Notes: a model not told the origin generated them from the sequence alone. 64,000 nt of DNA from Candidatus Micrarchaeota archaeon (GCA_021797995.1 JAJZYR010000001.1:79342-143341); one strand, 5' to 3'. Shown: positions 19,592-47,111, numbered from the stretch's first letter. Made by a program: numbers and translations.

Positions 19592-19672
19592 ATAGTCAGT
19601 CATTGAGTATGATGTACAAACACTATCACCTGATGATGTTTAACATCAAACACAGTTATTCGCAGTCGCTTA

Positions 19673-20560: not shown

Positions 20561-20725
20561 AGTAATACTTGCCCCTACACATTTATAAATATTTGGTTTT
20601 TGATTGAAATGTAGGGGTAGATAGCTACTACTATGGGATTTGTATCCTGCCTCCTCGTAAACGTTAAATGGACTCAGCGTGGCTTCCAACAAAGTTGTAA
20701 GTTCCTCGTATATAGCTATATAACG

Positions 20726-21145: not shown

Positions 21146-21231
21146 GAACTTCGCCTACTTATTGTGACCTTGAGCAGTTATTATAATTATGCCTGGGGTG
21201 ATATGCACATGCCCACGAGGGACAAGTGGAA

Positions 21232-21303
21232 TGGACTCTGCGGGATTTGAACCCGCAACCTCCTGCATGCCATGCAGGCGCGCTACCATTGCGCTAAGAG
21301 CCC
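21232..21303 (-). tRNA. tRNA-Ala (anticodon GGC)
   Basis: 72-nt cloverleaf. Acceptor GGGCTCT/AGAGTCC with G3:U70. D arm GCGC-AATGGTA-GCGC. Anticodon arm CCTGC-ATGGCAT-GCAGG. T arm GCGGG-TTCAAAT-CCCGC. Discriminator A, no encoded CCA. Confidence 0.9.
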
Positions 21304-21641
21304 AGAATCTGCAGTTAGAGTTGTCTGATTTGACATGTGACATCCTCCCCGGGCTTTAGCCCGGGGCTTCCCATCGGACCAAGACTTCCCGATCCGAAGG
21401 TATGTTCTCGCTTCGACGGTCCCGCTTTCGCATCCGTTTCCGGGTGCAAAGAGGCAGGATCTCCACGAGCTTCAATTCCCGCATGCCCTGCGGTACTCTT
21501 GTGCAGTATATTCCTCGCAGCATTTATATCCCTGTCGATCCGGAGGCCGCACACCATGCAGGAGTACGTCCTCTCGCCGAGAGAGATGTCCCTGATTGCA
21601 CTGCACGCGCTGCACCTTCTTGTCGTATCCTTCGGTTCCAC
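21304..21641 (-). mobile_element. tnpB: IS200/IS605-family remnant: TnpB (OrfB) C-terminal fragment plus right-end hairpin
   Basis: The translated tail PKDTTRRCSACS...YSCMVCGLRIDRDINAARNIL carries a zinc ribbon and the RuvC-III DRDxNAAxNI motif. It continues into ...GSPGLKPGEDVT, which is encoded by the GC hairpin ccccgggc-ttta-gcccgggg (21347-21366). Only about 105 aa of a normally ~400-aa protein remain. Confidence 0.7.
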
Positions 21642-21851
21642 TGGGTCTATCCTTATCCCGACCTCCTCCCTGGCCTCTCTTACCGCAGCCGCGCTGATAG
21701 CCTCGCCTTTCTCTAAGTGGCCGGATGGCATAGAGTACCATCCATCCCTGTAACCGGTGCCTTTGCGCCTTATGAGAAGTATCTTCCCCTCCTTTCTGAG
21801 TAGGATGAATACGCCAATCCTGTGGCCGCTCCGTATCTCATGTCCAGGCAT
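21642..21851 (-). pseudogene. Nudix hydrolase, N-terminal ~70 aa, fused in frame to the TnpB fragment
   Basis: The complete Nudix box GHLEKGEAISAAAVREAREEVGI is followed within about 5 codons by TnpB sequence. The rest of the Nudix fold is missing. Confidence 0.65.
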
Positions 21852-35046: not shown

Positions 35047-36423
35047 CTAAATTTGCAGTTTCTTCATCAGTTCCGAATAGGCAGCCCCGGCATACTCCTT
35101 CGGAATAGAATTTACGAATAGCATCGCCTTTCCAAGGCGTATATCCTTGCGCGCCTTCCTTCCCTTCCTTATCATATCCCTGAAAGCCTCCTCCGCGCTT
35201 CCGTATCTGTTTTTCTCCAGGGCGTATAGCTCGGTGCCTTTTATCAGCGCCCCGATCGCCCTGCTGTGCCCTTTAATGAAATTGCCAGCAGCCTGGCGCA
35301 TAAAGACGCTAGGGCCCTTGAGCAGCCGCGTCTCTATCCTGGTGCCAGGAAGCGCGAAGAGGAGAAATCCGTAATGCCCCGAGATCCACTGTGCTGAGAG
35401 GAAAACGCCATAGCCATGCCTAGAGAGCGTATCCGCCATTATTCCAGAAGTCTTCCTCAGCTGCGGCCAGACGACATCCTCGCTCTTGTCCGGAACCCTT
35501 AACTTTACCATATAAAGCGAGAGGCCCGAATCCTTGGTGAACTTTCTCAATAGCACCCCGGCTGCAGGAGAGGGAAATCCCTTTCCGAAGAACAGCTCTG
35601 CGCTCGGGTTATCAACGAATCTCCTTGCGACCATCACAAACCGGCTGAGAGACTCTGGAGAGACTCCTGCGCCGACATTCCTATTGCTGTCGACGGGATC
35701 TATGACTATAAACTTAGAATTGAATCTCTTTACAAGCTGCTGGTCACCCTGCCTGCCTCTTGTCTTGGGGTCAAGTATTACAGGCAGCTCAAACGTCGCC
35801 GCACTTTCCAGGAGCTTGATGAGGGATCCAAACTGGAGTATCAGGAGTTCGCATAGATACCCGGGAAATCCGCCAACCCTTACCTCTGCACCATAGATGT
35901 TATGCGCCTTCAGCAGATACTTCAGGAGCCTCGTCTCGTCCCTCTGCCTCTCGGTCATGTTGGAATTTATGAAATCAGTATGCAGAGGGGTCCTGTCTAC
36001 CGTCGTGCCCATTTCCTCAATGTTGTCTATCTTAAGTGCGGGGACAAGATCTATCCTGACTCCAAGCCCTTCAAGGTAAACGCGTATGTATGGGTGCTCC
36101 GCATATTTTATCTCGAACCTGTCGCGTTTTCCGCTTGCAAGCTTCTTCCCGTAGGCTAAGCCCTTCCTGACAAGCTCCTCCTTCCCGGTTTTCTTATGGA
36201 AGAGCATAAAGATGTCGATGTCCGCATCCCCCTTCAGGTTAGTCCCCCTGGCCACGGAACCAACGACCCTCAGTTCAACCCCCTTCTCGACAATTCCTGC
36301 CAGCCTCGATGTCACCGTATTTATATTGGCTATAGTGGCATTGGTTTCGGCCTGGCTGGGCTTTATGTCGGCAAGCACCCTGTGGAAGATCATTTCTGCC
36401 TTCCCTGCCTTTCGTGCTTCCAT
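35047..36423 (-). CDS. cca: CCA-adding enzyme (archaeal class I tRNA nucleotidyltransferase)
   Basis: GSVARGTNLKGDADIDIFMLF nucleotidyltransferase motif. Length and order are typical of archaeal Cca. An alternative start at MIFHRV is possible. Confidence 0.8.
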   Translation of the reverse strand: MEARKAGKAEMIFHRVLADIKPSQAETNATIANINTVTSRLAGIVEKGVELRVVGSVARGTNLKGDADIDIFMLFHKKTGKEELVRKGLAYGKKLASGKRDRFEIKYAEHPYIRVYLEGLGVRIDLVPALKIDNIEEMGTTVDRTPLHTDFINSNMTERQRDETRLLKYLLKAHNIYGAEVRVGGFPGYLCELLILQFGSLIKLLESAATFELPVILDPKTRGRQGDQQLVKRFNSKFIVIDPVDSNRNVGAGVSPESLSRFVMVARRFVDNPSAELFFGKGFPSPAAGVLLRKFTKDSGLSLYMVKLRVPDKSEDVVWPQLRKTSGIMADTLSRHGYGVFLSAQWISGHYGFLLFALPGTRIETRLLKGPSVFMRQAAGNFIKGHSRAIGALIKGTELYALEKNRYGSAEEAFRDMIRKGRKARKDIRLGKAMLFVNSIPKEYAGAAYSELMKKLQI

Positions 36424-36482: not shown

Positions 36483-36584
36483 GGGCTCGTAGCGCAGCAG
36501 TAGCGCGCATCGTTCGCAAGAAGCCTCTAAAAAAGGCTTCATCGAAAGACGATGAGGTCGCGGGTGCGATTCCCGCCGAGTCCA
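36483..36584 (+). tRNA. tRNA-Ala (anticodon CGC) with 30-nt intron
   Basis: Acceptor GGGCTCG/CGAGTCC with G3:U70. D arm GCGC-AGCAGTA-GCGC. Anticodon stem CATCG/CGATG with loop TTCGCA|A. Intron 36519-36548 sits at position 37/38 and contains the hairpin GAAGCCT-N7-AGGCTTC. T arm GCGGG-TGCGATT-CCCGC has a non-canonical loop. Discriminator A. Confidence 0.8.
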
Positions 36585-36675
36585 CATTTTTACTGCGGTA
36601 TTTGTTCTCTAGTAATGAACAATAGTGTTCATTGGTAATGAAAACATTTAAATATCTTAGCCTCTAAATGAAATC

Positions 36676-37896
36676 ATGATACTGAAGGAAACACTTAGGC
36701 AGATAGTCAAAGCTCAGAGGAAAGACTTAGAATCGTTCAGCTACGGAGTAGAAAGGGAAGAATTAGGTGAGATAAAACTCAATATGCATTACGCATTGAT
36801 ACTATCAGGTATAAGACGATGTGGTAAGAGTACTCTACTTCACCAATTGCTTAAAAAACTTCCAAATTTCTATTATCTAAACTTTGAGGACACACGGCTA
36901 GACAGCTTTCAAGTTGAGGATTTCGAAAAGTTAGATGAAATCTTCAAGGAAGATTACAGTGAATCCGAATACTATCTTTTCGATGAAATACAGAATATTG
37001 ATAAATGGGAGCTTTTTGTAAGATCCAGACTTGACAAACAGAAGAAATTTATTATTACAGGCTCTAACGCTTCGCTTTTAAGTAAGGAGCTTGGTACTAG
37101 ACTCACAGGCAGGCACATCAACATGGAACTGTTTCCATTCTCCTTTATGGAGTCGCTTTCTATGACTAAGGTAAAGGCAAGCGCAACTTCATTCTCAGAA
37201 TACTTAAGAAGTGGAGGGTTTCCAGAATATCTGAGATATAAAAAACAAGAAATACTGCGCGAGTTATTAACAGACATAATACAAAGGGATATTGTAGTAA
37301 GGCACAAATTGCGCGATTCTAAAACAGTGAAGACACTTGCGTTATATCTGCTTAGTAACACGGGCAACGAGTTTTCGTATAATAACCTTAAGAAGATGTT
37401 CAATCTGGGGTCAGTGAATACCGTAATAGCATTTGTTTCTTATTTTGAGGACAGCTACCTTCTATTTACTGTGCCAAAGTTTGATTACTCGCTTAAGAAA
37501 CAGATAGTTAATGCAAAAAAAATATATTCTATAGATAATGGTCTTTCGACCTCAAATTCGGCTTCGTTCTCTTCAGATTTAGGAAGAATGTTAGAGAATT
37601 CTGTATTCTTGCATCTTCGTAGGAGATATAAAGAAATATTCTACTTCAAAGGAAAAAGAGAATGCGATTTCTTAGTAAAGGAGCAAAACAAGATAAAAAT
37701 GGCAATACAGGTCTCGTATGAGCTAAACGAAGGAAATAAACAGAGAGAATTTGACGGACTTCTTGAAGCTATAAAAGAGTTTGATTTGGTAGAAGGATTA
37801 ATACTTACATTTGACCAAGAAGACAAATTTGAGATTGAGGGAAAACACATAATAGCAAAACCGGTTTGGAAATGGATGCTAGAAAGCAATTTGTAA
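36676..37896 (+). CDS. AAA+ ATPase, COG1373 type (AAA_14 + DUF4143), paralog 1
   Basis: GIRRCGKST Walker A, YYLFDEIQNIDKWE Walker B, ITGSNASLLSKELGTRLTGRH, C-terminal ECDF...IQV. AT-rich. TATA catttaaata lies about 25 nt upstream. Confidence 0.85.
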   Translation: MILKETLRQIVKAQRKDLESFSYGVEREELGEIKLNMHYALILSGIRRCGKSTLLHQLLKKLPNFYYLNFEDTRLDSFQVEDFEKLDEIFKEDYSESEYYLFDEIQNIDKWELFVRSRLDKQKKFIITGSNASLLSKELGTRLTGRHINMELFPFSFMESLSMTKVKASATSFSEYLRSGGFPEYLRYKKQEILRELLTDIIQRDIVVRHKLRDSKTVKTLALYLLSNTGNEFSYNNLKKMFNLGSVNTVIAFVSYFEDSYLLFTVPKFDYSLKKQIVNAKKIYSIDNGLSTSNSASFSSDLGRMLENSVFLHLRRRYKEIFYFKGKRECDFLVKEQNKIKMAIQVSYELNEGNKQREFDGLLEAIKEFDLVEGLILTFDQEDKFEIEGKHIIAKPVWKWMLESNL

Positions 37897-37995
37897 TGTA
37901 TGAAAGTGAAAAAGGAGGAACGAGATTAAAATTGTTTTATCTATGAGTCTGTGTTCAAAAGAAATATCTCCAATTTGGATTTTACCTAGTACACA

Positions 37996-38113
37996 AACCT
38001 TTTTGGAAAGGTTAATCGAAAACACTGGGTGCGAATACAGCCAGATTTGCACCGTGTCTGTTTATATTTCTAAATGCGGTATAATCTGTGTGCGAAGACA
38101 CAGATGTTCGCAT
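37996..38113 (+). repeat. conserved non-coding module R, copy 1
   Basis: Hairpin aaccttt-ttgg-aaaggtt (37996-38013). Hairpin 38023-38056. TATA tttatatt (38061-38068). gtgtgcgaa...ttcgcat hairpin. Homologous to 42857-43010 and 45542-45695. Confidence 0.8.
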
Positions 38114-38170
38114 TTCTGAAAATAAAATCTACGGTGGCTATATGGAAACGAAAGCTAGACGAAAAAGCTA

Positions 38171-38226
38171 CGACCCGCGTCCGCTTTGCAAGCGGAAGGT
38201 CGCTGGTGCGATCCACGCGGAGTCGA
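38171..38226 (+). pseudogene. tRNA-Ala(UGC)-like 3' fragment
   Basis: Anticodon arm TCCGC-TTTGCAA-GCGGA. Then AGGTC, an imperfect T arm with a TGCGATC loop, and GGAGTCG-A. There is no matching 5' acceptor strand or D arm. Confidence 0.6.
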
Positions 38227-38232
38227 TTCAAG

Positions 38233-39690
38233 CTACCTGTCCGGCTTCGTAGTGCCTGCGCCGTGAAGCTGTTGTACTCTGTCATCCTTCCCTCTTGCCA
38301 GCGATACTATCCCTGCAGCGACAAGTATGACTATCATTGCAACGAACGAGAACCGCATGCCCGTGATGAATGCGCTGGCAGTTGCCCCTGTCAGCTTTGC
38401 AGAGGTGCCTACGAAGATCTCAAACGCCTGCGCGCGCGGTATCGATGCAGCTGCTACCACGAAAACGACTATGAAGCTGCCCATCATGCCTATGGTAGAG
38501 AACATCCTGGACAATCCGGAAGCTATGCCGAACCTGCTCTGCTCTGCGTGCGCCATGATGGAGCTACTGTTTGCTGGCCAGAACATCGCGCCCCCTATAC
38601 CTGTAATCAGCGACCCTAGTATTACAAGGTAGACCGAGGAGTATGGATTCAGGAACATGTACACTATTATCCCAAGTATCTGGAGGGCTATGCCCAAGGT
38701 CGCCACAATCCTCGCGCCGTGCTTGTCCGAGATCCTGCCCATGTAAGGCGACAGCAGGCCGCTTACAACGTAGCCTGGCACAAGCAGGAGGGAAGCGAAG
38801 AGGGGTGTAAAGCCGAGGACCCCCTGAAGATACAGTATAAGCATGAAGACGACTCCCAGGAAGCCCAGGCCCTGAAGCATAGCAGCGAAAACTGAGTTCT
38901 TGAACACCCTGTTCGCGAACATGTCGAACGGTATCGTTGGGCTCTCAGATCTCCTCTCTATGAAGTAGAACGCTGCCAGGAGCAATACGCCTATGACCAC
39001 CATAACCGTGTTGAGTGCACCTGTGCCGGTTGAGGCATATCCTATGCCGCCGTACAGCAGCAGGGACAGGGCAACTGCCAACGTCACCATGCCCCCTATG
39101 TCCAGCTTGGCTGCGAACGTCTGCTTGTCGGATATGTACTTGACGCCCAATACCAATGCCACTATGCCTATTGGCACGTTTATGAAGAATATGTACTGCC
39201 AGCCTATGAAGGTTGTTATTATGCCGCCAAGTAGTATGCCTAGGAGCGCCCCTATATTGTATGCCATGGCGGTGAAGCCGAAAGCCCTTCCGATTCTGTG
39301 CCTTCCGAAGGTATCAGCTATTATTGCGCCGCTGGTTGCTGCGATCATCGCCCCTCCGAGCCCCTGCACTGCCCTAAATACGATAAGGAGAACGTCAGTA
39401 GGGGCTATGCCGCAAAGGAAAGAGGAAGCGGTAAACACGGCAAGCCCGGCTATGAAGATTTTGGCCCTGCCATATATGTCGCCCACCTTACCGAACTGTG
39501 TTGTGGCTACTGCACTGATGAGCATGTATATCAATATGACCCATATTATGGTAGTCAAGTTAGAATGAAGCGACGACACTATTGCAGGGAATGCCAACAG
39601 CACTATTGTTGAGTCTATGGCTGCCATCAGCACTGCTACGAGTATCACACCCAGTATTATGTCCTCGTGTACGTGTTTTGCAGCCAACAT
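38233..39690 (-). CDS. MFS transporter, DHA2 (EmrB/QacA-like, 14-TM) family
   Basis: 485 aa with about 14 hydrophobic segments. N-terminal LMAAIDSTIV and GKVGDIYGR motifs. Confidence 0.75.
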   Translation of the reverse strand: MLAAKHVHEDIILGVILVAVLMAAIDSTIVLLAFPAIVSSLHSNLTTIIWVILIYMLISAVATTQFGKVGDIYGRAKIFIAGLAVFTASSFLCGIAPTDVLLIVFRAVQGLGGAMIAATSGAIIADTFGRHRIGRAFGFTAMAYNIGALLGILLGGIITTFIGWQYIFFINVPIGIVALVLGVKYISDKQTFAAKLDIGGMVTLAVALSLLLYGGIGYASTGTGALNTVMVVIGVLLLAAFYFIERRSESPTIPFDMFANRVFKNSVFAAMLQGLGFLGVVFMLILYLQGVLGFTPLFASLLLVPGYVVSGLLSPYMGRISDKHGARIVATLGIALQILGIIVYMFLNPYSSVYLVILGSLITGIGGAMFWPANSSSIMAHAEQSRFGIASGLSRMFSTIGMMGSFIVVFVVAAASIPRAQAFEIFVGTSAKLTGATASAFITGMRFSFVAMIVILVAAGIVSLARGKDDRVQQLHGAGTTKPDR

Positions 39691-40022
39691 AGGAATCAGC
39701 GTATGATAACGGCATATCCACTGCCAATTACATACATGTAGCTGTTTTAACGGTCGAAGCTTAATAACCTTTATCAGTTACTTACGGAATACGCGTAACA
39801 ATATTCCACTATAAAAGATAAATTTACTTGCTTATAATGGCCCAATAAGGACGGCGTAAGCTTAAGGAAAGATTTCACTCCTTTTTCTTCATTGGTTATA
39901 TGTTTGGGGCCAGCTATGTGACATCCTCCGATGACTAAAGGTCGTTGGCTTCCCCTGCATTTGCAGGGTATGTTCTCAATTCCTCAAGCGGCTTTTCGAT
40001 TCCTGTTGAATCGCAGAGGCTA

Positions 40023-40655
40023 CTAATATGGGCTGGTGAGCTTGCCGGCGTCTGCAGATTCTTTGTGCCGCTTTATGAAATTCAGGACGACTGTAGCAGT
40101 ATGCTTGTCGTATCTCTCAAGGTATTTGTGGATCTTTTTTCTGCTTATCTTCTTTAGTAGCTCGCTGTAATCTTGAATCGGCAATTTCACCCTATAGTAG
40201 AACAGGTCTATAAGCGTCTTTTCTGGTTCAGATACAGGCACCTCCAGTGTCCCGTATTTGACTATGCCAAATCCGAAGAAATACTTTGCTGGCATGTGGT
40301 GGACGAAGACCGTTTCCTTTATATCGCCAAATATGTGTATCGAAGAGGCGCGGACCTTCCTGATGGTAATGATATCAGGCCTAGAGTTCTGTGTCCAAAG
40401 CTCCCTTATAGTTAGCGCGGACAGCAATCCATAGTAGAATGGACTGTATGCAAAGCCTGCCACCATGCTATCTTTTTTGAATGCATAGGCCCCTTTTCTA
40501 ACCGTATACAGCTTTCCGCTGCTCTTCATATACGCGATGATCCTTGTAAGGTTTGCCGTTTTCAGCTTTTTGTTTTTGAAGTATAGCTTAAGGTCCCTGC
40601 GCGTGAACACAGGGTAGTCTGAAAAATGATTAATTATGTCCTTTACTATTGTCAC
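40023..40655 (-). CDS. AbiEi-like antitoxin / COG5340-type wHTH regulator (tentative)
   Basis: 210 aa. The N-terminal pattern FTRRDL...L..L..SGKLYTVRKGAYAF resembles AbiEi wHTH domains. It overlaps the upstream nucleotidyltransferase gene by 26 nt. Confidence 0.5.
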   Translation of the reverse strand: MTIVKDIINHFSDYPVFTRRDLKLYFKNKKLKTANLTRIIAYMKSSGKLYTVRKGAYAFKKDSMVAGFAYSPFYYGLLSALTIRELWTQNSRPDIITIRKVRASSIHIFGDIKETVFVHHMPAKYFFGFGIVKYGTLEVPVSEPEKTLIDLFYYRVKLPIQDYSELLKKISRKKIHKYLERYDKHTATVVLNFIKRHKESADAGKLTSPY

Positions 40656-41328
40656 TCAACCACTTCTTTATCGTGTTCACCATCAGGTCGAATGTCGGCG
40701 GCAGGCCTGCGATTATCAGATGCCCTAAGCTGCCCATATTCGGCGGCGGATTTCCGTCTATTTTTCCAATTAATGCCTTTAGCCGTTTGACTGACGTTGC
40801 ATCAACCCTGTTGATCAGGGAAATCAGATAGTAAATATCATACAGATCCTGCACTTCAGTCTGCTTGAATCTCTCCACACTATTCAATTTATCTTCATAG
40901 GCGGCCATCTTTTCATTGAGCAGTTCCAATGGACTTAGAGATAGGACAACGATTTTGCTGCCGTCAATTTTCATGTAATCGAATTCGGTGCCCTTTTTGT
41001 ATTTGAAGTTGATGTCGATTTTCATCTTTGTGTTGGATTCTACCAAAAAGTGCATCGTGTCTGTTGCCTTTTCATATCCCTTTTCTTTCATCAGAAATCC
41101 TGAATCTTTCAAGAAATCTGAGAGCTCCTTGTAGTGCCGCATCTTTTCTTCGTTTGTCTTAGCATCGAGATAGAAGTCTATGTCTCTAGAGAACCTGTTT
41201 CCCCCATGGCATCTCCATATCGAAGTGCCGCCGTGAAACACCAGGCCGTTGTATCTGCTATACAGGAGTTCTACTAGAACGTCCTCCAGTTTTGCTTTCT
41301 CCATCTGCGCCTGATCTCTTATATCCAT
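40630..41328 (-). CDS. nucleotidyltransferase AbiEii/AbiGii toxin family (DUF1814)
   Basis: FHGGTSIWRCHGGNRFSRDIDFYL matches the GGTAL...R.S.DIDF N-terminal motif of the family. 232 aa. Confidence 0.65.
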   Translation of the reverse strand: MDIRDQAQMEKAKLEDVLVELLYSRYNGLVFHGGTSIWRCHGGNRFSRDIDFYLDAKTNEEKMRHYKELSDFLKDSGFLMKEKGYEKATDTMHFLVESNTKMKIDINFKYKKGTEFDYMKIDGSKIVVLSLSPLELLNEKMAAYEDKLNSVERFKQTEVQDLYDIYYLISLINRVDATSVKRLKALIGKIDGNPPPNMGSLGHLIIAGLPPTFDLMVNTIKKWLSDNSKGHN

Positions 41329-41402
41329 AGAACCATAACTACATTTTATTACAATTTTATGTAATAATATGCACTTATATATTTAAATACCTTGCTGTTG
41401 AA

Positions 41403-41499
41403 GGCAGTGTGGCGGTAGTGCTCATCGTTCGCAAGAAGCCTCTAAAAAAGGCTTCATCGAAAGAGGATGAGTTCGCGGGTTCGAATCCCGCGGAGTCTA
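41403..41499 (+). pseudogene. tRNA-Ala(CGC)-derived pseudo-tRNA retaining the intron
   Basis: A 42-nt run (41423-41464) is identical to tRNA 36508-36549, covering the anticodon stem-loop and the whole intron. The T arm is canonical (GCGGG-TTCGAAT-CCCGC). The 5' acceptor strand and D stem do not pair, and the anticodon stem has one mismatch. Confidence 0.7.
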
Positions 41500-41577
41500 C
41501 TTACTCTGATTAGGTCGTTTGGATATTATATAGTATAGTAACAAAGATTTAAATAACATTATATAGTATACTATATC

Positions 41578-42852
41578 ATGGATAAAGAAACGCTCAGGCT
41601 CGTAATAGTTGACCAGAGAAAGAGCCTCGAGGAAAAGCTTAGAGACAAAAACATAATCGTTCGGGATGCAAGTAAGTCGATAGTGCTGAAAGCCCCGACC
41701 GCCTTCATAGTCCTCGGGGTCAGGCGCTCTGGCAAGTCTACGCTTTCGGAGCAGTTGTTTATTGATGACAAATTTGGTTATATAAATTTTGATGACGAGA
41801 GGCTCCTAGGCGCAACTAGAGATGACCTTAATATCATACTTCAGATATTCTATGAGTTGTACGGATCCGATCTTGGCAATATAATACTCGATGAGATACA
41901 ATTAGTACCTGGTTGGGAACCGTTTGTGAGCAGGCTTAGGGATACAAAGAAGGTCATAGTCACTGGGTCTAGCTCTAAACTGCTTAGTGGCGAGCTTTCG
42001 ACCAGGCTGACAGGCAGGCACATCGACCTCCTGTTGTTTCCGTTCAGCTTTAATGAGTTTCTTACGTATAAACACTGGAACATACCTAAGGCTTTCTCTA
42101 CTACCGATAGGGCAGAGGTTGTAAGATTACTCGATGAGTATATAAGCTCTGGGGGATTCCCGGAGCAGTTTACCTTGGGCAGGCAGATAATCAGGAACAT
42201 TTACAATGATATAATAACAAAAGACATCGTAATAAGGCATAAGATAAAGTACATAGACGACTTAAGGCAGGCAGCGCGGTTTTTGGTATCAAACAGCTCA
42301 AAAGAATTTACATACTCTTCTCTTAAAGGTGTGACTGGGGCCAAGAGCATTATAACCCTATCGAATTGGGTGAGGTACCTTGAAGAGGCATATCTTATCT
42401 TCAAAATAGAGCGGTTTTCATATAAACTGAAGCAAACAATCCTCGCGCCTAAAAAGATATACTGCGTCGATGTTGGTATAATAAACGGGATAAGCCCGGA
42501 GCCGACGGGCAACAAAGGCAGATTGATGGAGAATACTGTTGCAATGGAACTGATAAAGGGCAGCAAAAATGTCGGATTTGAGGTATTTTACTGGAAGGAC
42601 CATCAAGGGAGGGAGGTAGATTTTATTATTAAGGACGACAGAAAGGTCGCTAAGCTAATCCAGGCTACTTATGCAACAAGCCGTGAAGCAATTGAAGATA
42701 GGGAAATAAAGTCGCTAGTAATAGCTTCTAACGAACTGAGATGCAATAATCTCTTCATAGTCACGTGGGATTATGAGGGCAGTATCGTGATAGAAGGAAA
42801 GAAAATAGCACTTGTTCCATTATGGAAGTGGCTGCTGAATAAAGAATTATGA
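41578..42852 (+). CDS. AAA+ ATPase, COG1373 type (AAA_14 + DUF4143), paralog 2
   Basis: GVRRSGKST, NIILDEIQLVPGWE, VTGSSSKLLSGELSTRLTGRH, C-terminal REVDF...IQA. TATA atttaaataac lies about 25 nt upstream. Confidence 0.85.
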   Translation: MDKETLRLVIVDQRKSLEEKLRDKNIIVRDASKSIVLKAPTAFIVLGVRRSGKSTLSEQLFIDDKFGYINFDDERLLGATRDDLNIILQIFYELYGSDLGNIILDEIQLVPGWEPFVSRLRDTKKVIVTGSSSKLLSGELSTRLTGRHIDLLLFPFSFNEFLTYKHWNIPKAFSTTDRAEVVRLLDEYISSGGFPEQFTLGRQIIRNIYNDIITKDIVIRHKIKYIDDLRQAARFLVSNSSKEFTYSSLKGVTGAKSIITLSNWVRYLEEAYLIFKIERFSYKLKQTILAPKKIYCVDVGIINGISPEPTGNKGRLMENTVAMELIKGSKNVGFEVFYWKDHQGREVDFIIKDDRKVAKLIQATYATSREAIEDREIKSLVIASNELRCNNLFIVTWDYEGSIVIEGKKIALVPLWKWLLNKEL

Positions 42853-42856
42853 CAAT

Positions 42857-43010
42857 GCTTTACGAAAAGCTTTACCAAAGAGTCTGGGTGCGTAACCTTT
42901 TTGAAAAGGTTGAACCAGAACACTGGGTGCAGTTTTGTCGTTATTTGCACCGTGTCTCTTTATATTTCTGAAATGCCATAGTCTGTGTGCGGATACACAG
43001 ATGCGCGCAT
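42857..43010 (+). repeat. conserved non-coding module R, copy 2
   Basis: Starts 5 nt after the ATPase-2 stop. Hairpins at 42894-42911 and 42921-42954. TATA at 42959-42966. By hand alignment there are 3 mismatches in about 117 nt versus copy 3. Confidence 0.85.
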
Positions 43011-43061
43011 TTTGAAATATGATCTACTGTGGCTTGAATGGCTAGAAGAAATGACGGTAAA

Positions 43062-43119
43062 AGCTTAGAGCGCGTCGTTCGCAACGATGAGATTGCGAGT
43101 TCAAATCCTGCCGAGTCCA
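43062..43119 (+). pseudogene. intron-less tRNA-Ala(CGC)-derived 3' fragment
   Basis: CGTCG-TTCGCAA-CGATG anticodon arm joined exactly at the exon-exon junction of the 36483 tRNA. T arm GCGAG-TTCAAAT-CCTGC. CGAGTCC-A. The 5' acceptor strand and most of the D arm are absent. Confidence 0.65.
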
Positions 43120-43230
43120 TTTTATGTTTACGAGTGAAGCAGGTGCGATGGACTTGTCTTTAGTCTTTGGTAGAAATAGATGTTCTATATTCTAGAATAT
43201 CCAGAAGATTTATATATGTATATCATCACA

Positions 43231-43248
43231 TATATCACTAGTGATATA
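43231..43248. promoter_or_regulatory. perfect 18-bp palindrome, candidate PadR operator
   Basis: tatatcact|agtgatata lies between the TATA-like gatttatatatg (43207-43218) and ATG 43249. Confidence 0.5.
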
Positions 43249-43479
43249 ATGAGAAACGTAGAAAACGTAGAGAAAGAAGACTGTGGATGCAGCTGCAGAT
43301 GCGGAGGTGGAAGCAGAGGAATGCGCAGGCATATGGGCTTCGGTGATATGGACTTGACAAATGACGAAACAGCTGAACGTCTGAGATACTACAAAGATGA
43401 CCTCACGGAAGAAATAAAGCTCATAGATAAACGGATAGCGGATCTCAAGGCAGAAGCCACAAGGAAAGGCAGCAAATAG
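43249..43479 (+). CDS. small Cys/Gly/Arg-rich plus coiled-coil protein (DUF5320-like, tentative)
   Basis: MRNVENVEKEDCGCSCRCGGGSRGMRRHMGFG followed by a heptad-like tail (LTEEIKLIDKRIADLKAEA). ATG 43249 lies directly after an 18-bp palindrome. Its stop overlaps the PadR start. Confidence 0.55.
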   Translation: MRNVENVEKEDCGCSCRCGGGSRGMRRHMGFGDMDLTNDETAERLRYYKDDLTEEIKLIDKRIADLKAEATRKGSK

Positions 43480-43859
43480 TGCAGGCTATGCCTATAAATT
43501 CAGGGTACTGCAACTGCGGTCCGTTTAGGGTGAGCGTGATCCCCCACGGGCTTCTCAAGCCGTATATTCTCAGGCTGATATCAGAGAGGCCTATGTACGG
43601 CTTTGAGATAATGGAGCAAATATTCGAGAAGACAGGCGGCATGTGGCGGCCCGGTCCTGCAGCCACGTATACTACGCTTGAGTGGTTGGAGCGGAATGGA
43701 TATATAAAATCGCTGAATGCAGTGCAGAGGTCCGAAAAGCAGAGGAAACAGTATAAGATAACTGAAAAAGGCCTCACTGCGCTCACAGACTATGCCGAAA
43801 CGTCAAAAATGATAGCGAACCGCATGAAAAGGTTCGGATTGCTGTATGGTGGCCTTTAA
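43479..43859 (+). CDS. PadR-family transcriptional regulator
   Basis: LLKPYILRLISERPMYGFEIMEQI...GPAATYTTLEWLERNGYI is a PadR wHTH. The start is either GTG 43479 (TAGTG overlap) or ATG 43488. Confidence 0.8.
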   Translation: MQAMPINSGYCNCGPFRVSVIPHGLLKPYILRLISERPMYGFEIMEQIFEKTGGMWRPGPAATYTTLEWLERNGYIKSLNAVQRSEKQRKQYKITEKGLTALTDYAETSKMIANRMKRFGLLYGGL

Positions 43860-44223
43860 TGATCGTTATCCCAATTACTACAAAATATATACTGATGATA
43901 GTATAACGGCAGTCAGATTTGCTGTAGCAGTTTAAAGTCAAAATCTCTTACTTCATCTACCCCGCGTACTACTGACGGTTGATGTTCTTTATAGTCAACT
44001 GCCAATAATTCATCCAGCATTTTACTGCCTAAAAGACCAAATTTTACCTGGGGATACGCGTATAACAAATTCCTGCCTTCCACGTAATCGACAATATACT
44101 AATGCTTATCTTACAGAACAGCACAAAAGGTGCAGAGGAGCAGAGTAATGATCAGCCGTCTTTCATTTACGTACAGTATACTAAACGTAAAGCATATAAA
44201 CATGTATAACATACTATACAGAT

Positions 44224-45522
44224 ATGGCTAGCGTTGATGACTTTAAGTATGTGCTTACCCTCTGGAAAGAGATGGAGCTACCAGAAGTCATAGACAGGAA
44301 GATTACTTTAGATTTAGATGCAGACAAAATAATAGTCATTGCTGGTGTAAGACGCTCTGGTAAAACGAGTTTAATGTTTCAGCACATTAAAGAGCTAATG
44401 AGAAGAAAGGTGGGAAAGGACAATATTATTTATGTTAATTTTGAGAATGAGCGCCTAATAGCTACTAAAGCAACAGACATGGATAATCTCATGGTTGCGC
44501 ATTCGCAAATATTCACTCCTGTAGAAGGAATTGTGTATTTGTTCTTGGATGAGATCCAGAACGTAGAGAACTGGGATAAATGGATAAGGAAGATATATGA
44601 CACCAAGAAGTATAGAATTATAATAACCGGATCGTCATCGCAATTACTTAGCAGCGAGATAGCTACGGCGCTTGCAGGCAGGAACCTTTCTTATACTGTT
44701 TATCCATTCTCTTTTAGCGAGATACTGAAATCGAAGGGTATAACCACCGAAATTAGTAGCATAAAATTTTCTTCAAAGAAAGGCATTGTACTGAAAGCGC
44801 TAGATGAATTTCTCGAATATGGCTCTTTTCCAGAGGTCATACTTTCAAATGATGCTACAAGAAAAATGGATCTTTTATCAGCGTACTTTGATGCAATATT
44901 CTTTAGGGACATAATAAAGCGATATAACCTGAGGGAAATGGGTGCATTAAACATTTTCCTTAAGATACTTGCTAGTAACTATTCGACTTATTTCAGCTCA
45001 ACAAAAGCCCAGAATTATTTCAATAGTATGGATTTTAAGATTAGCAGGGTTACAATTCTTAACTTTTTAGAATACTCTAAATCTGTATTCTTTGCTGAAA
45101 CCTTGGAGCAATACTTAAAAAGTCCAAGAAAGCGATTTGCTAGACAGATAAAGAGTTATATTGTTGACATTGGGCTATCAAGATTGTTTACAGAGATAGA
45201 TAAAGGTAGGGCACTTGAAAATGCGGTGTTTATTGAGCTGCTTAGAAGGAGAAAGGCACCAGATAATATCTATTATCTGAAATTGAAATCAGGAAAGGAG
45301 ATTGACTTTATTATAGGTTGGAAACCTACTAAACTAATACAGGTATGCTATAAATTTTCTAGCAACGATGTAAAAAAAAGAGAAACTCTGGCACTAGTTG
45401 AAGCTGCAAAAACACTTAGACTTAAAGAAGGGACCATAATTACTTATGATTATAGCGGCAGTGAGGTTATAAATGGAATAAAGATATTACACACACCCTT
45501 CTGGGAATGGGCCCTTACGTAG
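44224..45522 (+). CDS. AAA+ ATPase, COG1373 type (AAA_14 + DUF4143), paralog 3
   Basis: GVRRSGKTS, YLFLDEIQNVENWD, ITGSSSQLLSSEIATALAGRN, C-terminal KEIDF...IQV. TATA gcatataaac lies about 25 nt upstream. Confidence 0.85.
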   Translation: MASVDDFKYVLTLWKEMELPEVIDRKITLDLDADKIIVIAGVRRSGKTSLMFQHIKELMRRKVGKDNIIYVNFENERLIATKATDMDNLMVAHSQIFTPVEGIVYLFLDEIQNVENWDKWIRKIYDTKKYRIIITGSSSQLLSSEIATALAGRNLSYTVYPFSFSEILKSKGITTEISSIKFSSKKGIVLKALDEFLEYGSFPEVILSNDATRKMDLLSAYFDAIFFRDIIKRYNLREMGALNIFLKILASNYSTYFSSTKAQNYFNSMDFKISRVTILNFLEYSKSVFFAETLEQYLKSPRKRFARQIKSYIVDIGLSRLFTEIDKGRALENAVFIELLRRRKAPDNIYYLKLKSGKEIDFIIGWKPTKLIQVCYKFSSNDVKKRETLALVEAAKTLRLKEGTIITYDYSGSEVINGIKILHTPFWEWALT

Positions 45523-45541
45523 TAACGAGCAACTTACAAGA

Positions 45542-45695
45542 CCTTTTTACGAAAAGCTTTACCAAAGAGTATGGGTGCGTAACCTTTTTGAAAAGGTTGA
45601 ACCAGAACACTGGGTGCAGTTTTGTCGTTATTTGCACCGTGTCTGTTTATATTTCTAAATGCGGTATAATCCGTGTGCGAATCGGATGTTCGCAT
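45542..45695 (+). repeat. conserved non-coding module R, copy 3
   Basis: Hairpins at 45581-45598 and 45608-45641. TATA at 45646-45653. gtgtgcgaa-tcggatg-ttcgcat hairpin. Confidence 0.85.
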
Positions 45696-45757
45696 CCATC
45701 CAATGGCTGAAGTGCGTGGACTCTCTGCTATTCATTTTGTAAGACTGTAGGCGCGTG

Positions 45758-46423
45758 TTACCTTGATATTACGAGCCCGAAATGCCAATGCCCGGGCTTG
45801 AATCTCTTCTTGATACTGAATCCAGGGAACCATGCAAGATACTCCTCCTCGGACATCCGCAGGTTATCTGGCGGGCCTGAATGCTGCTTGTCGCGCATGC
45901 CGGCACCTTTTCTCCAGTCAACGATTATTATACGCCCTCCAGGTTTAAGTATCCTTATTACTTCTCCAGCAGCAGCGCCCTTCCTGTCCATATCGTGGAA
46001 TGAATTCGCCATGAAAACTGCGTCTGCAGATGAGTCGGGCAGGGAGATCCTTGAAGCATCCTCCTTCAGGAACCTTACATTTTCTCCATGGACCGTCTTG
46101 CGCGCCGCAGATATCATGGCCTTGCTGCTGTCTATGCAGTAGAGCCTTGATGCGAATGGTTTCAGCTTTTTGGCATAGAACCCAGGGCCACAGCCTATAT
46201 CCGCTATAACCTGCTTCTCAGGCCCGAAGATGTCCTTGAGGAAGGCTGTATTCTCGAACTTTTCTCTGCCATTAAGCAGGCGCTGTGCTGCGGATTTGTC
46301 CCATGAGTGGTGATGCGCTTCCATTATTACACGTTTACTGGGAGACTGCCGAACAAACGATCTCCCATAGGGAGTCTGGCTTGCTATGCGCCTGCCGGAT
46401 GCACATTTGCCTGTATTCTCCAC
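45758..46423 (-). CDS. class I SAM-dependent methyltransferase (Methyltransf_11-like)
   Basis: VIADIGCGPGFYA motif I and IIIVDW post-motif. The track start is GTG 46423, with tctatataac about 25 nt upstream. An internal ATG at 46324 (MEAHHHSWDK) is an alternative start. Confidence 0.75.
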   Translation of the reverse strand: MENTGKCASGRRIASQTPYGRSFVRQSPSKRVIMEAHHHSWDKSAAQRLLNGREKFENTAFLKDIFGPEKQVIADIGCGPGFYAKKLKPFASRLYCIDSSKAMISAARKTVHGENVRFLKEDASRISLPDSSADAVFMANSFHDMDRKGAAAGEVIRILKPGGRIIIVDWRKGAGMRDKQHSGPPDNLRMSEEEYLAWFPGFSIKKRFKPGHWHFGLVISR

Positions 46424-46503
46424 GCCAGACCTCTGTTGTCAGTTATATAGAATGGCCGAGAAGCCTTAAATATCTTTAAATTAGACTGTTCTATCGGGTT
46501 CTT

Positions 46504-46568
46504 GGCCCAGTAGTAGAACGATTCCATTCGCAACGGGGAGGCCGCTGGCATGATTCCAGCAGAGTCGG
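46504..46568 (+). pseudogene. degenerate intron-less tRNA-Ala(CGC)-like fragment
   Basis: ATTCGCAA loop context. Perfect T stem GCTGG-CATGATT-CCAGC. AGAGTCG-G. Anticodon stem and acceptor stem cannot form. A TATA-like ctttaaatta lies upstream. Confidence 0.5.
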
Positions 46569-46601: not shown

Positions 46602-47111
46602 ATGAAGAAGAAATTTAAGCTGGGCTTATTCATCGGCAGGTTCCAGCCCTTCCACAAAGGCCACATGTATGCGCTGGAGTTCTCCGCAGCAATGTGCAAG
46701 GAGCTGGTCATAGGGATTGGAAGCGCAGGGGAGTCTGGTACTGGAAGGAACCCCCTTTCGTCAAAGGCCCGCATAAGGATCATCAGGGCTGCGCTGGATG
46801 GGGCATCCCTCGATACAAGGTGCATACGCTTCATTGAGATACCAGACTTCAAGGATGATGAGAAGTGGTTCCGGTACATAACCAGGAAGGAACCAGGCAT
46901 AGAGGCCGTCTTCTCGCATCACTGGCTGGTGAAGAGGATATTTAGGGAGCATGGGCTTGCTGTAATAATGCCCCCATGGCACAAGAGGAGCTCGCTTGTG
47001 GCAACCAAAATCAGGAGGATGATAAAGGAGAAGAGGAATTGGAGGGGCAGGGTTCCTGCCGGCGCGATAAAGGAGATATCTTTATATGAGAAAATTATTA
47101 GAGGCGCATAG
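46602..47111 (+). CDS. nadM: nicotinamide-nucleotide adenylyltransferase (archaeal NMNAT)
   Basis: GLFIGRFQPFHKGH nucleotidyltransferase (H/T)xGH motif. 169 aa. Confidence 0.8.
   Translation: MKKKFKLGLFIGRFQPFHKGHMYALEFSAAMCKELVIGIGSAGESGTGRNPLSSKARIRIIRAALDGASLDTRCIRFIEIPDFKDDEKWFRYITRKEPGIEAVFSHHWLVKRIFREHGLAVIMPPWHKRSSLVATKIRRMIKEKRNWRGRVPAGAIKEISLYEKIIRGA

Follow-up and report, generated by a model that had tools for sequence, protein, structure and literature searches.

Organization of the tRNA-Ala locus

The DNA under study is a 64-kb stretch from Candidatus Micrarchaeota archaeon (DPANN), hereafter called the window, which contains an intron-bearing tRNA-Ala(CGC) gene followed by exactly four tRNA-Ala-like pieces in the same orientation. 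The genes cca and NMNAT form the left and right host flanks. The adjacency of cca and tRNA-Ala(CGC) is kept in at least 10 Micrarchaeota species, and in the nearest species (L021) NMNAT lies ~6 kb past tRNA-Ala, with other genes in between. As originally predicted, the island between the flanks (36585-46568) is AT-rich, with a GC content of 0.35-0.48 compared to ~0.53 in the flanks; a single 1-kb bin, over the MFS gene, reaches 0.52. Pfam and PADLOC matched the gene content and the four segments (E1 to E4) that had been described from the sequence. The features are as follows, where R denotes a repeated region, and Int(N) and Int(C) the N-terminal and catalytic parts of an integrase gene (int).

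35047-36423, minus strand: cca, class I CCA-adding enzyme (Pfam tRNA_NucTransf2, CAA_C, NTP_transf_2); left host flank
36483-36584, plus strand: intact tRNA-Ala(CGC), read as attL/attB target (Rfam; own covariance model)
36585-38226, plus strand: cassette E1, 1.64 kb (ATPase-1, R1, Int(N) stub, tRNA-like arm)
36676-37896, plus strand: E1 ATPase-1, AAA_14 + DUF4143, PADLOC candidate defence gene PDC-S01 (Pfam; PADLOC E 4e-116)
37945-38141, plus strand: E1 repeat R1, conserved int upstream region, read as P arm
38142-38252, plus strand: E1 Int(N) stub 1, METKARRKSYDPRPLCKRKVAGAIHAESI..., running into the following fragment
38171-38226, plus strand: tRNA-Ala(UGC)-like fragment, read as attR of E1 (own model; repeat family D2)
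38227-41499: segment E2 (Pfam, PADLOC)
38233-39690, minus strand: E2 MFS transporter (Pfam)
40023-40655, minus strand: E2 AbiEi (Pfam; PADLOC E 1e-15)
40630-41328, minus strand: E2 AbiEii (Pfam; PADLOC E 1e-15)
41403-41499, plus strand: tRNA-Ala(CGC)-like fragment, intron kept (repeat D3, 89 nt at 90%; own model)
41500-43119, plus strand: cassette E3, 1.62 kb (ATPase-2, R2, Int(N) stub, fragment)
41578-42852, plus strand: E3 ATPase-2, PDC-S01 (Pfam, PADLOC)
42859-43037, plus strand: E3 repeat R2
43038-43163, plus strand: E3 Int(N) stub, MARRNDGKSLERVVRNDEIASSNPAESI...
43062-43119, plus strand: E3 tRNA-Ala(CGC)-like fragment (own model)
43120-46568: segment E4 (Pfam, PADLOC, own model)
43180-43479: E4 ORF
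43479-43859: E4 PadR
44224-45522: E4 ATPase-3, PDC-S01 (Pfam, PADLOC)
45546-45700: E4 repeat R3, truncated before Int(N)
45758-46423, minus strand: E4 SAM methyltransferase
46496-46568, plus strand: E4 degenerate full-length pseudo-tRNA-Ala(CGC) (own model)
46602-47111, plus strand: NMNAT, CTP_transf_like (Pfam); right host flank

The three ATPases share the AAA_14 + DUF4143 architecture, match PDC-S01 HMMs (E 1e-96 to 1e-116) and have their own TATA-like upstream sequences. DPANN genomes are reported to be enriched in AbiE, SoFic and single-gene PDC systems, and both PDC-S01 and the AbiE pair, identified here by HMM matches, are described as typical of DPANN defensomes (PMC12988326). The cassettes mostly carry candidate antiviral defence genes; nothing is unusual in the PDC-S01 and AbiE proteins themselves.

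The intact tRNA-Ala(CGC) scored 52.9 bits in Rfam against a gathering score of 29. It has a 30-nt intron (at about 36520-36549), because of which ARAGORN made no call, and the G3:U70 pair can be read off its sequence. A repeat search found the 36-nt 3' part of the tRNA in five copies (at 36549, 38191, 41464, 43084 and 46533), with 69-83% identity to the tRNA copy. A covariance model was built from nine tRNA-Ala genes, namely eight from other Micrarchaeota loci and the window's own tRNA-Ala(GGC), and none from this locus. This model matched the intact gene at 36489-36577 with 53.6 bits and, in the 64-kb window, also 46496-46568 (E 5.9e-11), 43039-43119 (E 4.5e-9), 41449-41499 (E 4.6e-7) and 38171-38226 (E 1.5e-6), with nothing beyond these better than E 0.9 save the unrelated tRNA-Ala(GGC) at 21232-21303. 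Rfam, the repeat search and the independent model therefore place the five plus-strand tRNA-Ala-derived sequences essentially where the original prediction had put them. The anticodons are also as read then (UGC in the 38171 piece, CGC in the rest), and the 42-nt identity between the tRNA (36508-36549) and the intron-keeping fragment (41423-41464) is exact. The last piece starts at 46496 rather than 46504 and is a full-length degenerate pseudo-tRNA in our model.

Strain variation downstream of the tRNA-Ala gene

The tRNA-Ala(CGC) gene is 100% identical across every population variant, and the contigs that share it together with an identical cca protein have at least four different sequences directly after it. 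These are ATPase-1 (the window, L003, L009 and L010), an integrase (L001 and L004), a 342-aa ATPase_2 gene followed by a fragment and then an integrase (L002), and a second integrase type (L008). L001 and L037 overlap over 3724 nt at 100% identity, and joining them yields a 12,024-bp element, E0, which is inserted between the tRNA and ATPase-1 in one assembly. Starting from the tRNA, it runs through Int(C), backbone genes (one of them for a DUF87 ATPase), an MmeI/Type ISP-like restriction-modification gene, R0 and Int(N) (METKARRQTARERPLCKKTFRKSFIKPKRRKVAGSNPAES) to a fragment. Beyond E0, L037 continues with ATPase-1 and the rest of the window's array through the PadR gene, where the contig ends. 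In L039, the DNA beyond the position equal to 38227 differs from the window, and E2 does not directly follow E1. Modules are therefore present or absent in different strains (E0, the ATPase_2 cassette of L002, and E2 after E1), with an intact tRNA at one end and co-oriented 3' repeats delimiting them. This agrees with the tRNA-Ala integration hotspot with stacked cassettes that had been proposed, and relatives do not show one fixed order after the identical tRNA. An empty cca-tRNA-NMNAT site, whose search had been suggested together with that proposal, was absent among 23 NMNAT-bearing contigs, and every contig reaching far enough from NMNAT has the same E4-E1 order. Neither two IMG/VR scans nor the contigs examined yielded a circular, un-integrated copy in which int is contiguous. 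All comparisons are with metagenome contigs, and chimeric assembly may account for some joins; the key variants recur in independent assemblies.

Evidence for a self-splitting integrase gene

The array had been described as having no visible integrase. This holds for the catalytic part, since tblastn of three family integrases against the whole window found no remnant of it, but it does not hold for the other end of the gene, nor does the statement that there is no split integrase. Together, R and the short ORFs beginning at 38142 and 43038 make up the promoter-proximal Int(N) side of an int gene that splits itself. The R/Int(N) module closes integrase-bearing elements in L037 and L049, the latter being a complete 3.3-kb element on one contig with R at its far end (and an Int(N) ATG out of frame with the core); in the L046 element, part of R is found close to the far end. 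R1 is 91% identical to R0; within it lie hairpins, a single CTGGGTGC motif at 38025 and a TATA-like TTTATATT at 38061. Int(N) stub 1 has the same start (ATGGAAACGAAAGCTAGACG) and frame as the Int(N) of E0 in L037. E2 is without R and without an Int(N) start, its open frame having no start codon, and R3 is not followed by a fragment. Nucleotide identity among the R copies is 79-97%, compared to 32-40% amino-acid identity among the ATPases. R is so much better conserved because it sits, as element backbone, at the far end of integrase-bearing elements, with the ATPases being variable cargo.

At the tRNA end in L001, L002 and two other species (L023 and L026), an open integrase frame of 311-328 codons reaches back into the tRNA, and its tRNA part (...DDEVAGAIPAESIKLLGKK...) is without an in-frame start. 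Family-wide, the gene calls that reach furthest N-terminally run into this tRNA-coded peptide. In E0, Int(N) and Int(C) share a frame across the core (PAES), giving a 351-aa protein that matches PF00589. The attP thus lies inside the integrase ORF with Int(N) and Int(C) separate, and both ends are seen for E0 and L049. The window array looks integrase-free because integration splits int and only far ends remain here. Gene callers routinely list the Int(C) fragments as 240-330-aa 'integrases', some of them starting inside the tRNA gene, and miss the Int(N)/R ends, and therefore arrays of this type appear to have no integrase.

In an alignment of 28 homologues, R165, K190, H310 and Y319 are invariant and H283/R286 are at least 90% conserved. 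These correspond to the tyrosine-recombinase catalytic residues (R, K, H-x-x-R, H/W, Y) in the C-terminal part, with roles given by motif context and not by structure. PF00589 was matched by all 28 family members and PF16795 (Phage_integr_3, the SSV marker) by none of them, even at E<=1. A profile search of the PDB with the family gave XerA as the best match (4a8e, 2.4e-5), and the SSV1 integrase was not among the matches; IntI4 reached only 0.038 in a single-sequence structure search. Within the literature searchable here, the family is without prior description for DPANN.

These data also change the reading of the fragments, which had been taken as displaced host 3' tRNA ends. In E0, only the final 14 nt are identical between the tRNA and the distal fragment, and fragments have their own anticodon (UGC) or their own intron. 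For the most part, the fragments therefore belong to the elements themselves: they are tRNA-like attP arms lying within the Int(N) reading frame.

Proposed origin of the array

Our assessment, which includes the cassettes moved in trans, is that the tRNA-Ala gene is very probably a strain-variable landing site and that four remnants of self-splitting-integrase elements lie in tandem over 36585-46568. Each element would have entered the 3' end of tRNA-Ala(CGC) by site-specific recombination, using a predicted tyrosine integrase whose attP, a tRNA-Ala-like stretch ending in the 11-nt core CGCCGAGTCCA, lies within its own reading frame. Integration would cut int, such that the catalytic Int(C) stays right after the regenerated tRNA without promoter or start codon, whereas the putative R promoter region, the first 10-30 codons (Int(N)) and the tRNA-like arm seen as the fragment would go to the far end. 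Newcomers would insert at the intact tRNA and shift older elements rightward. In this strain every Int(C) has been lost, leaving the far ends and the cargo (three PDC-S01-type ATPases, the AbiE pair and MFS transporter, the PadR regulator and the methyltransferase). Counting against this reading are the missing R and Int(N) start of E2, the lack of a fragment after R3, the out-of-frame ATG of L049 and the failure to find an empty site or a circular copy. The 42-nt identity of E2, with diverged sequence on either side, could reflect recombination at another presumed crossover position or by another integrase.

E1 and E3 are minimal 1.6-kb units in which a single ATPase gene is accompanied by R, an Int(N) stub and the core, and similar units are found elsewhere. 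E1 (window 36574-38227) recurs in L038 with 97.7% identity and unrelated flanks, spanning from the last 11 tRNA nt to the end of the fragment. ATPase-2-like genes with R, 87-90% identical to E3 in nucleotides, recur in L055-L058 and L062. In L055 and L062, where left junctions were read, the cassette is preceded by CGCCGAGTCCA or by a variant differing in one base, and in L059 the core is on both sides of the ATPase-2-like gene. The ATPase_2 cassette of L002 retains the first 84 nt of Int(C) coding sequence at its start. Since cassettes without Int(C) recur elsewhere bounded by CGCCGAGTCCA, they probably moved in trans. Complete relatives such as the 12-kb E0 most likely supplied the integrase for E1 and E3, which would themselves be non-autonomous; it is the recurrence of such units in different contexts that points to this. 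In L039, the fragment after R1 is closer to that of E0 than to that of E1, which indicates recombination among elements, outside the simple model.

With the same self-splitting origin, E1 and E3 could alternatively be dead deletion remnants that are not mobilisable, their copies elsewhere reflecting shared ancestry and rearrangement. Int(C) fragments are unexpressed after integration and expected to decay, and the 84 nt of Int(C) in the L002 ATPase_2 cassette are what a deletion could leave behind. In L050, a remnant of about 330 bp consists of R, Int(N) and fragment without cargo, and decay is visible at other far ends, where the L038 core has acquired a stop codon, the L062 fragment is truncated and R3 is incomplete. 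But the Int(C)-less ATPase and R units hold att-to-att boundaries at 87-98% nucleotide identity in several unrelated neighbourhoods, and independent deletions are not expected to repeat the same boundaries; we thus regard this alternative as rather unlikely, though to be taken seriously. A scenario in which a tRNA-ATPase unit was duplicated locally and the copies then diverged, without a mobile element, would account for three paralogous ATPases each with an R and for tRNA pieces on one strand. It is contradicted by the strong conservation of R next to diverged ATPases, by fragments that are unlike in anticodon and intron state, by strains that differ by whole cassettes and by the integrase-bearing E0, and by E1 at another locus in L038, and it is accordingly highly improbable.

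Other readings concern what the pieces are. Archaea, including DPANN relatives, have split tRNAs, and the pieces at 38171 and 43062 keep intact anticodon arms, as halves of functional split or permuted tRNA genes would. However, the 38171, 43039 and 46496 copies have non-standard pairs in T, D or acceptor stems, matching 5' halves were not found among window matches better than E 0.9, the 38171 and 43062 pieces are inside short ORFs in the integrase frame, and the pieces travel with cassettes in other strains. Complementary halves are thus not seen, only 3'-biased degenerate copies with broken stems, and a split-tRNA identity, which we rejected, is scarcely credible. An integron-like platform is suggested by the co-oriented single-gene cassettes with a structured repeat of about 150 nt behind each: an IntI-type integrase would have captured the ATPases as promoterless cassettes, with R serving as the attC-type site. 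Yet R precedes the int gene of the elements themselves and leads into its start codon, the cassette boundaries are at the tRNA-derived core and not at R, an IntI gene is absent (XerA being the far better structure match), and the ATPases have upstream TATA-like sequences of their own; this identity was also rejected as most improbable. Finally, the ATPases, with a PD-(D/E)XK-type C-terminus, might themselves be mobility enzymes homing into tRNA-Ala as selfish nuclease genes. A survey of the PD-(D/E)XK superfamily reportedly mentions DUF4143, the ATPase is the only gene in E1 and E3, and a PD-(D/E)XK fusion has been reported for PDC-S01 (PMC12988326). But E0, L049 and L046 have the same ends (tRNA on the left, R at the far end) with an integrase and without such an ATPase, the L002 cassette carries a different ATPase family, and the boundaries are the att core of the integrase, and hence we give this reading very little weight.

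Comparison with known mobile elements

The self-splitting reading brings the array close to the SSV-type ('type I' or 'suicidal') archaeal integrases of SSV1/SSV2, pTN3 and pT26-2/TKV (Badel et al. 2020, PMC7253208; review PMC8371274). Shared features are the attP in the int ORF, integration into the 3' tRNA part giving Int(N) and Int(C), an att segment translated as part of the protein, and an integrated copy that would be unable to excise itself and would need the intact integrase of a relative. In contrast, the Micrarchaeota family matches PF00589 and not PF16795, whose superfamily is stated to be monophyletic (PMC8371274) and to which it does not belong, its nearest structure is XerA and not SSV1 Int, and its host is a DPANN Micrarchaeota rather than Sulfolobales, Thermococcales or Archaeoglobales. 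Unlike pT26-2, where int is antiparallel to the tRNA and attP/attB identity extends over 51 bp, int and tRNA are co-oriented here, and the identical core appears to be 11-14 nt at the 3' end. The elements are also arranged in tandem, whereas tandem insertion was said not to be observed for suicidal MGEs (PMC7253208).

An intact tRNA at one end, co-oriented 3' direct repeats, AT-rich cargo and strain-variable modules are shared with serial-integration tRNA islands such as the Klebsiella asn-tDNA hotspots (PMC4891358) and tandem Sulfolobus elements (Redder et al. 2009, cited in PMC8371274). The repeats here, however, are mostly element-borne arms in a coding frame and not host 3' copies, and the array is without a complete integrase. 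By retaining cis sites (core and R/P arm) without a recombinase, and by recurring in different contexts, E1 and E3 resemble non-autonomous elements mobilised in trans. Bacterial CIME/IME-type elements and MITE-like derivatives are of this kind. Each cassette here differs from them in having one intact, probably useful gene (PDC-S01) and in its derivation from a self-splitting integrase system, its mobilisation being suggested by sequence comparison.

Significance

In the literature, self-splitting integrases form one protein superfamily and are considered peculiar to hyperthermophilic archaea (PMC8371274). A DPANN family with another Pfam signature would widen their host range and raises the question of a convergent origin. 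The array would also provide natural examples of tandem suicidal-type elements, the arrangement that Badel et al. (PMC7253208) had reported as not observed, and the loss of Int(C) from its older members suggests a reason for the persistence of such arrays. More tentatively, and with less than even confidence, we propose that this is an undescribed Micrarchaeota lineage of PF00589/XerA-like self-splitting integrases, maybe independent of SSV/pTN3/pT26-2, whose core, R and Int(N) stub may have been taken over by ~1.6-kb integrase-less cassettes with one defence gene each. Mobilised in trans, these could pile up at tRNA-Ala in an array that would be stable because no junction rebuilds int. Such an array would be a tRNA-anchored archaeal counterpart of the integron cassette array, building a compact DPANN single-gene defence repertoire. 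For genome-reduced DPANN, it may offer a route to gain and shuffle single-gene defence (PDC-S01, AbiE and restriction-modification).

tRNA-Ala-derived sequences in an AT-rich island

The tRNA at 36483-36584, which scored 52.9 bits with Rfam, reads as tRNA-Ala(CGC); it has G3:U70, and its anticodon loop is interrupted by a 30-nt intron. ARAGORN reported only tRNA-Ala(GGC) in the window, missing tRNA-Ala(CGC) because of its intron and also missing all the fragments, and Rfam at a permissive threshold returned one fragment only, at E 1. A repeat search of the window recovered five co-oriented copies of the 36-nt 3' part of tRNA-Ala(CGC), together with an intron-including 89-nt copy of 90% identity. 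To obtain locus-independent statistics, a covariance model was built from nine tRNA-Ala genes (eight from other Micrarchaeota loci plus the window's tRNA-Ala(GGC)) and run across the whole window with filters off; beyond the two true tRNAs and four fragments it gave no match below E 0.9.

tRNA-like fragments located by the covariance model
38171-38226, tRNA-like fragment, E 1.5e-6
41449-41499, tRNA-like fragment, E 4.6e-7
43039-43119, tRNA-like fragment, E 4.5e-9
46496-46568, tRNA-like fragment, E 5.9e-11

The five co-oriented tRNA-Ala-derived sequences of the original prediction are confirmed by Rfam, the repeat search and the independent covariance model, and the 42-nt perfect core that it described (36508-36549 = 41423-41464) was exact on re-check. 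The last piece, predicted at 46504-46568, is real, but its extent was wrong, as it is a full-length degenerate pseudo-tRNA starting at 46496.

The window has a GC content of ~0.53, with an AT-rich stretch at 36-46 kb whose 1-kb bins range from 0.35 to 0.48, except for one bin of 0.52 over the MFS gene. Pfam and PADLOC annotated the following genes.

Genes of the island and its flanks
35047-36423, minus strand, cca
36676-37896, ATPase-1 (AAA_14 + DUF4143)
38233-39690, minus strand, MFS transporter
40023-41328, minus strand, AbiEi + AbiEii
41578-42852, ATPase-2 (AAA_14 + DUF4143)
43479-43859, PadR
44224-45522, ATPase-3 (AAA_14 + DUF4143)
45758-46423, minus strand, SAM methyltransferase
46602-47111, NMNAT

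All three ATPases are strong PADLOC matches to the candidate defence gene PDC-S01 (E 1e-96 to 1e-116). AbiE, SoFic and single-gene PDCs are reported as enriched in the DPANN defensome (PMC12988326), and the island cargo agrees with this.

A second AT-rich island (18000-21304, GC 0.38-0.44) lies directly 3' of tRNA-Ala(GGC) (21231-21304, minus strand).

Genes of the second island
18321-19466, PglZ/phosphodiesterase-like protein
19673-20692, Fic-domain protein
20726-21145, membrane ORF

Neither an integrase nor, with the tRNA-Ala model, a tRNA-like repeat at its far end was found in this second island. Beside its tRNA, the ORF at 21315-21851 (minus strand) combines an N-terminal NUDIX domain with a Cas12f1-like TNB domain (the TnpB C-terminal zinc ribbon), and looks like a TnpB remnant joined to a NUDIX gene.

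Conserved target site and variable downstream DNA

The species-representative genomes included no conspecific of the window's organism, and the nearest cca among them had 62% identity. A protein-guided scan of these genomes placed the window in Candidatus Micrarchaeota (DPANN). In at least 10 of the Micrarchaeota species tRNA-Ala(CGC) adjoins cca, which makes the target site ancestral. In the closest species representative (L021), a LAGLIDADG-like ORF (8525-9535, minus strand) lies between cca and tRNA-Ala(CGC), and the 6 kb from the tRNA to NMNAT encode PfkB, PIN, Fic, a SLOG-family protein, peptidase A4 and an AlkZ-like glycosylase.

Assemblies of ENA, NCBI, JGI and Logan have at least 22 contigs that encode an identical 458-aa cca protein; in all of them tRNA-Ala(CGC) is 100% identical, and the DNA after it varies. 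The neighbour of the tRNA is ATPase-1 in the window and three other contigs (L003, L009 and L010), a tyrosine-recombinase gene in L001 and L004, and a second recombinase type in L008, while in L002 the tRNA is followed by a 342-aa ATPase_2/AAA_14 gene, a tRNA-like fragment and then a recombinase. Read from NMNAT, every contig reaching far enough has the order methyltransferase, ATPase-3, PadR, ATPase-2, AbiE, MFS and ATPase-1, and exact-protein matches of ATPase-2 and ATPase-3 came from the window's own context alone. The predicted tRNA-Ala integration hotspot with stacked cassettes is thus borne out by identical tRNAs with differing downstream DNA. Comparison with related genomes and bins yielded this polymorphism but not an empty cca-tRNA-NMNAT site, as a site without the array was seen neither among the NMNAT-side contigs nor in relatives.

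A self-splitting integrase

In L001 the recombinase frame is open from within the tRNA to the catalytic domain (...ARSAAVARIVRKKPLKKASSKDDEVAGAIPAESIKLLGKKFYQEAEEN...HSLRHY...TYIS), with no in-frame start in its tRNA-coded part. The same holds for L002, and contigs of two other species have the same open frame (L023, 328 codons; L026, 317 codons). In the window, two fragments are each closely preceded by the ATG of a short ORF that runs on into the fragment in the integrase frame and corresponds to Int(N), the start-codon part of the gene.

Int(N) short ORFs of the window
38142, begins METKARRKSYDPRPLCKRKVAGAIHAESI...
43038, begins MARRNDGKSLERVVRNDEIASSNPAESI...

Contig L037 carries, in this order, a DUF87 ATPase, small ORFs, an MmeI/Type ISP-like restriction-modification gene, the repeat copy R0 and METKARRQTARERPLCKKTFRKSFIKPKRRKVAGSNPAES reading into a fragment, and beyond that fragment ATPase-1, the repeat copy R1, fragment 38171, MFS, AbiE, ATPase-2 and PadR. 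L001 and L037 overlap by 3724 nt at 100% identity and together define E0, a 12,024-bp element that in some strains sits between the tRNA and the window's array. Its left end is the tRNA plus Int(C), the catalytic part, and its right end is R0, Int(N) and a fragment. The two integrase parts of E0 have a common core read in one frame (PAES), and their joined product has 351 aa and contains a PF00589 domain. L049 repeats this architecture within one contig of 4.5 kb, as an intron-bearing tRNA, Int(C), five small ORFs, R, a fragment and a host gene. In L046 the tRNA and Int(C) are followed by restriction/defence cargo, and part of an R copy lies close to the end of the contig. PHROGs gave nothing informative on the E0 backbone beyond the integrase and the DUF87/FtsK-like ATPase, and IMG/VR scans with the R pattern and with the reconstructed integrase gave no match.

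The original prediction had seen no integrase. The catalytic part is indeed absent, since tblastn with three family integrases detected no catalytic remnant within the window, but Int(N)/R ends are present. A self-splitting integrase solves the puzzle of the 'integrase-less' array: the window has kept its N-terminal ends and lost every Int(C).

Four proteins considered as intact int genes (P0001, P0007, P0029 and P0032) were all integrated Int(C) with a called ORF running into the host tRNA. In L045 (~10001) and L046 (~5005), the Int(C) gene calls begin inside the tRNA and in frame with Int(C), with predicted products of 322 and 323 aa, respectively; the called start is the ATG of a D-loop reading AATGGTAG in L045, and a GTG in L046, where the D-loop reads AGTGGTAG.

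Repeat R as the upstream region of int

The three ATPases are 32-40% identical to one another, whereas the R copies directly after them (~140-200 nt) are 79-97% identical, which was the first clue that R is not merely the 3' tail of the ATPase genes. At the far end of E0 R stands ahead of Int(N), L049 likewise has R at its far end, and L046 has a partial copy near its own; R is therefore the conserved int upstream region. With the ATPases and restriction genes as variable cargo, the difference in conservation is resolved. R contains a TATA-like TTTATATT ~75 nt before the Int(N) ATG.

Three hairpins are predicted in R (regions 37996-38113, 42894-43010 and 45581-45695), with a few compensatory changes among six copies (3 of 28 predicted pairs) and the variable stretches in loops. 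The TATA-like box is closely followed by the last, composite hairpin, which could be an operator or a 5'-UTR structure. R has an ESGC...TGCS frame that resembles the Int(C) 5' region, but a coding role was rejected because R0 interrupts this frame and the variation is confined to hairpin loops.

The motif CTGGGTGC occurs as two copies 39 nt apart in R2 (42884, 42923), as one exact and one degenerate copy each in R1 (38025) and R3 (45610), and as two copies 42 nt apart in the Int(C) 5' coding region (L001 9721/9763; L002 4239/4281), the latter always on the tRNA strand. It has GGGTGCG in common with the T-stem/loop of the target tRNA (GCGGGTGCGATT), and its copies may be integrase binding sites on both arms and the core. 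CTGGGTGCG motifs are present in R and the Int(C) 5' region.

A JGI metagenome scan with a degenerate R pattern returned five loci, with true R in L050 only. On this distant Micrarchaeota-like contig (6253-6650), tRNA-Ala is followed by a cargo-less ~330 bp remnant and a second fragment. The remnant, an Int(C)-5'-like module fused to R, then Int(N) and a first fragment, looks like an element collapsed by recombination between the Int(C) and R motif modules. In L055 (2558-2962), an unrelated 134-aa ORF is joined to an R copy with its METKAR start codon region, so that another gene appears to have taken over the int promoter/start module.

Fragments as attachment arms

The fragments had been read as displaced 3' ends of the host tRNA. 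In E0, attL (the tRNA) and attR (the distal fragment) are identical over the last 14 nt only, TCCCGCCGAGTCCA, and the distal fragment reads UGC at its anticodon and carries a homologous intron of its own. Cassette boundaries elsewhere are the 11-nt CGCCGAGTCCA or a near variant: the L038 copy of the ATPase-1 cassette E1 spans window 36574-38227, the core precedes each of the ATPase-2-like cassettes of L055 and L062 (one base off in L055), and it stands at both sides of the ATPase-2-like gene of L059. The fragments are thus not displaced host 3' ends; for the most part they are tRNA-like attP arms that belong to the elements and lie within the Int(N) coding frame, and the crossover would most likely occur at the very 3' terminus of the tRNA. 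A second conserved element end, unlike R (...CACTTGTATAATAATG..GGGACTGCA..TGCAGGGACGCCGAGTCCA), closes some ATPase cassettes (L059 5030-5105, L062 70-141, L055 1000-1068), which suggests that more than one P-arm type uses one 11-nt core. The MFS/AbiE segment E2, without R and without an Int(N) start, is an exception to this scheme; a 42-nt core that stays identical while its flanks diverge could also result from crossover within the anticodon/intron region, or from the action of a different integrase.

Possible mobility of the mini-cassettes

Two segments of the array are single-gene cassettes.

Mini-cassettes of the window
36585-38226, E1, one PDC-S01 gene, R, Int(N) stub and fragment
41500-43119, E3, one PDC-S01 gene, R, Int(N) stub and fragment

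The E1 copy in L038 has 97.7% nucleotide identity across 1654 bp and lies between flanks unrelated to those of the window (purD, NAC, a glycosyltransferase, NIF3 and TruD), and L039 has other DNA after E1. Homologues of ATPase-2 (87-90% amino-acid identity) with R after each of them were found in other neighbourhoods, beside an AbiE pair in L055-L058 and beside ksgA and RuBisCO in L062. In L002, the first 84 nt of the ATPase_2 cassette are still Int(C) coding sequence, so this cassette descends from a complete element.

The data contradict four rival readings, namely segmental duplication, split tRNAs, an integron-like platform and homing driven by the ATPases. Only one rival is serious, which takes the mini-cassettes for deletion remnants that cannot move. 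Cassettes without Int(C) nevertheless recur with the same boundaries in different neighbourhoods, and this makes mobilisation in trans by a relative's intact integrase the likelier reading, which we favour with modest confidence from sequence comparison; such mobilisation has already been proposed for suicidal elements (PMC8371274).

Comparison with SSV-type integrases

The mechanism is the one known from SSV-type 'suicidal' integrases, in which attP lies within the int ORF, the target is a tRNA and integration separates Int(N) from Int(C) (PMC8371274, PMC7253208). Suicidal integrase families have been tied to Pfam PF16795 and one single origin (PMC8371274). All 28 sampled members of the present family matched PF00589 and none matched PF16795 even at E<=1, so membership of that superfamily is not supported. 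At least 509 proteins of the collection belong to the family, whose best solved relative is XerA (4a8e). Here int is co-oriented with the tRNA, whereas the int of pT26-2 is antiparallel to its tRNA (PMC7253208). Tandem arrays are present here, in contrast to suicidal elements, for which, according to Badel et al., no tandem insertion had been observed, because a rebuilt int would excise the elements (PMC7253208). No junction of the window's array rebuilds an intact int, which may explain its stability.

The full-text literature searched contained no description of such integrases in DPANN or Micrarchaeota. The original observation is genuine, and reading it as a hotspot is correct. As a kind, the system is already known; it is set apart by its integrase lineage and host phylum, by its tandem arrays and by its single-gene cassettes.
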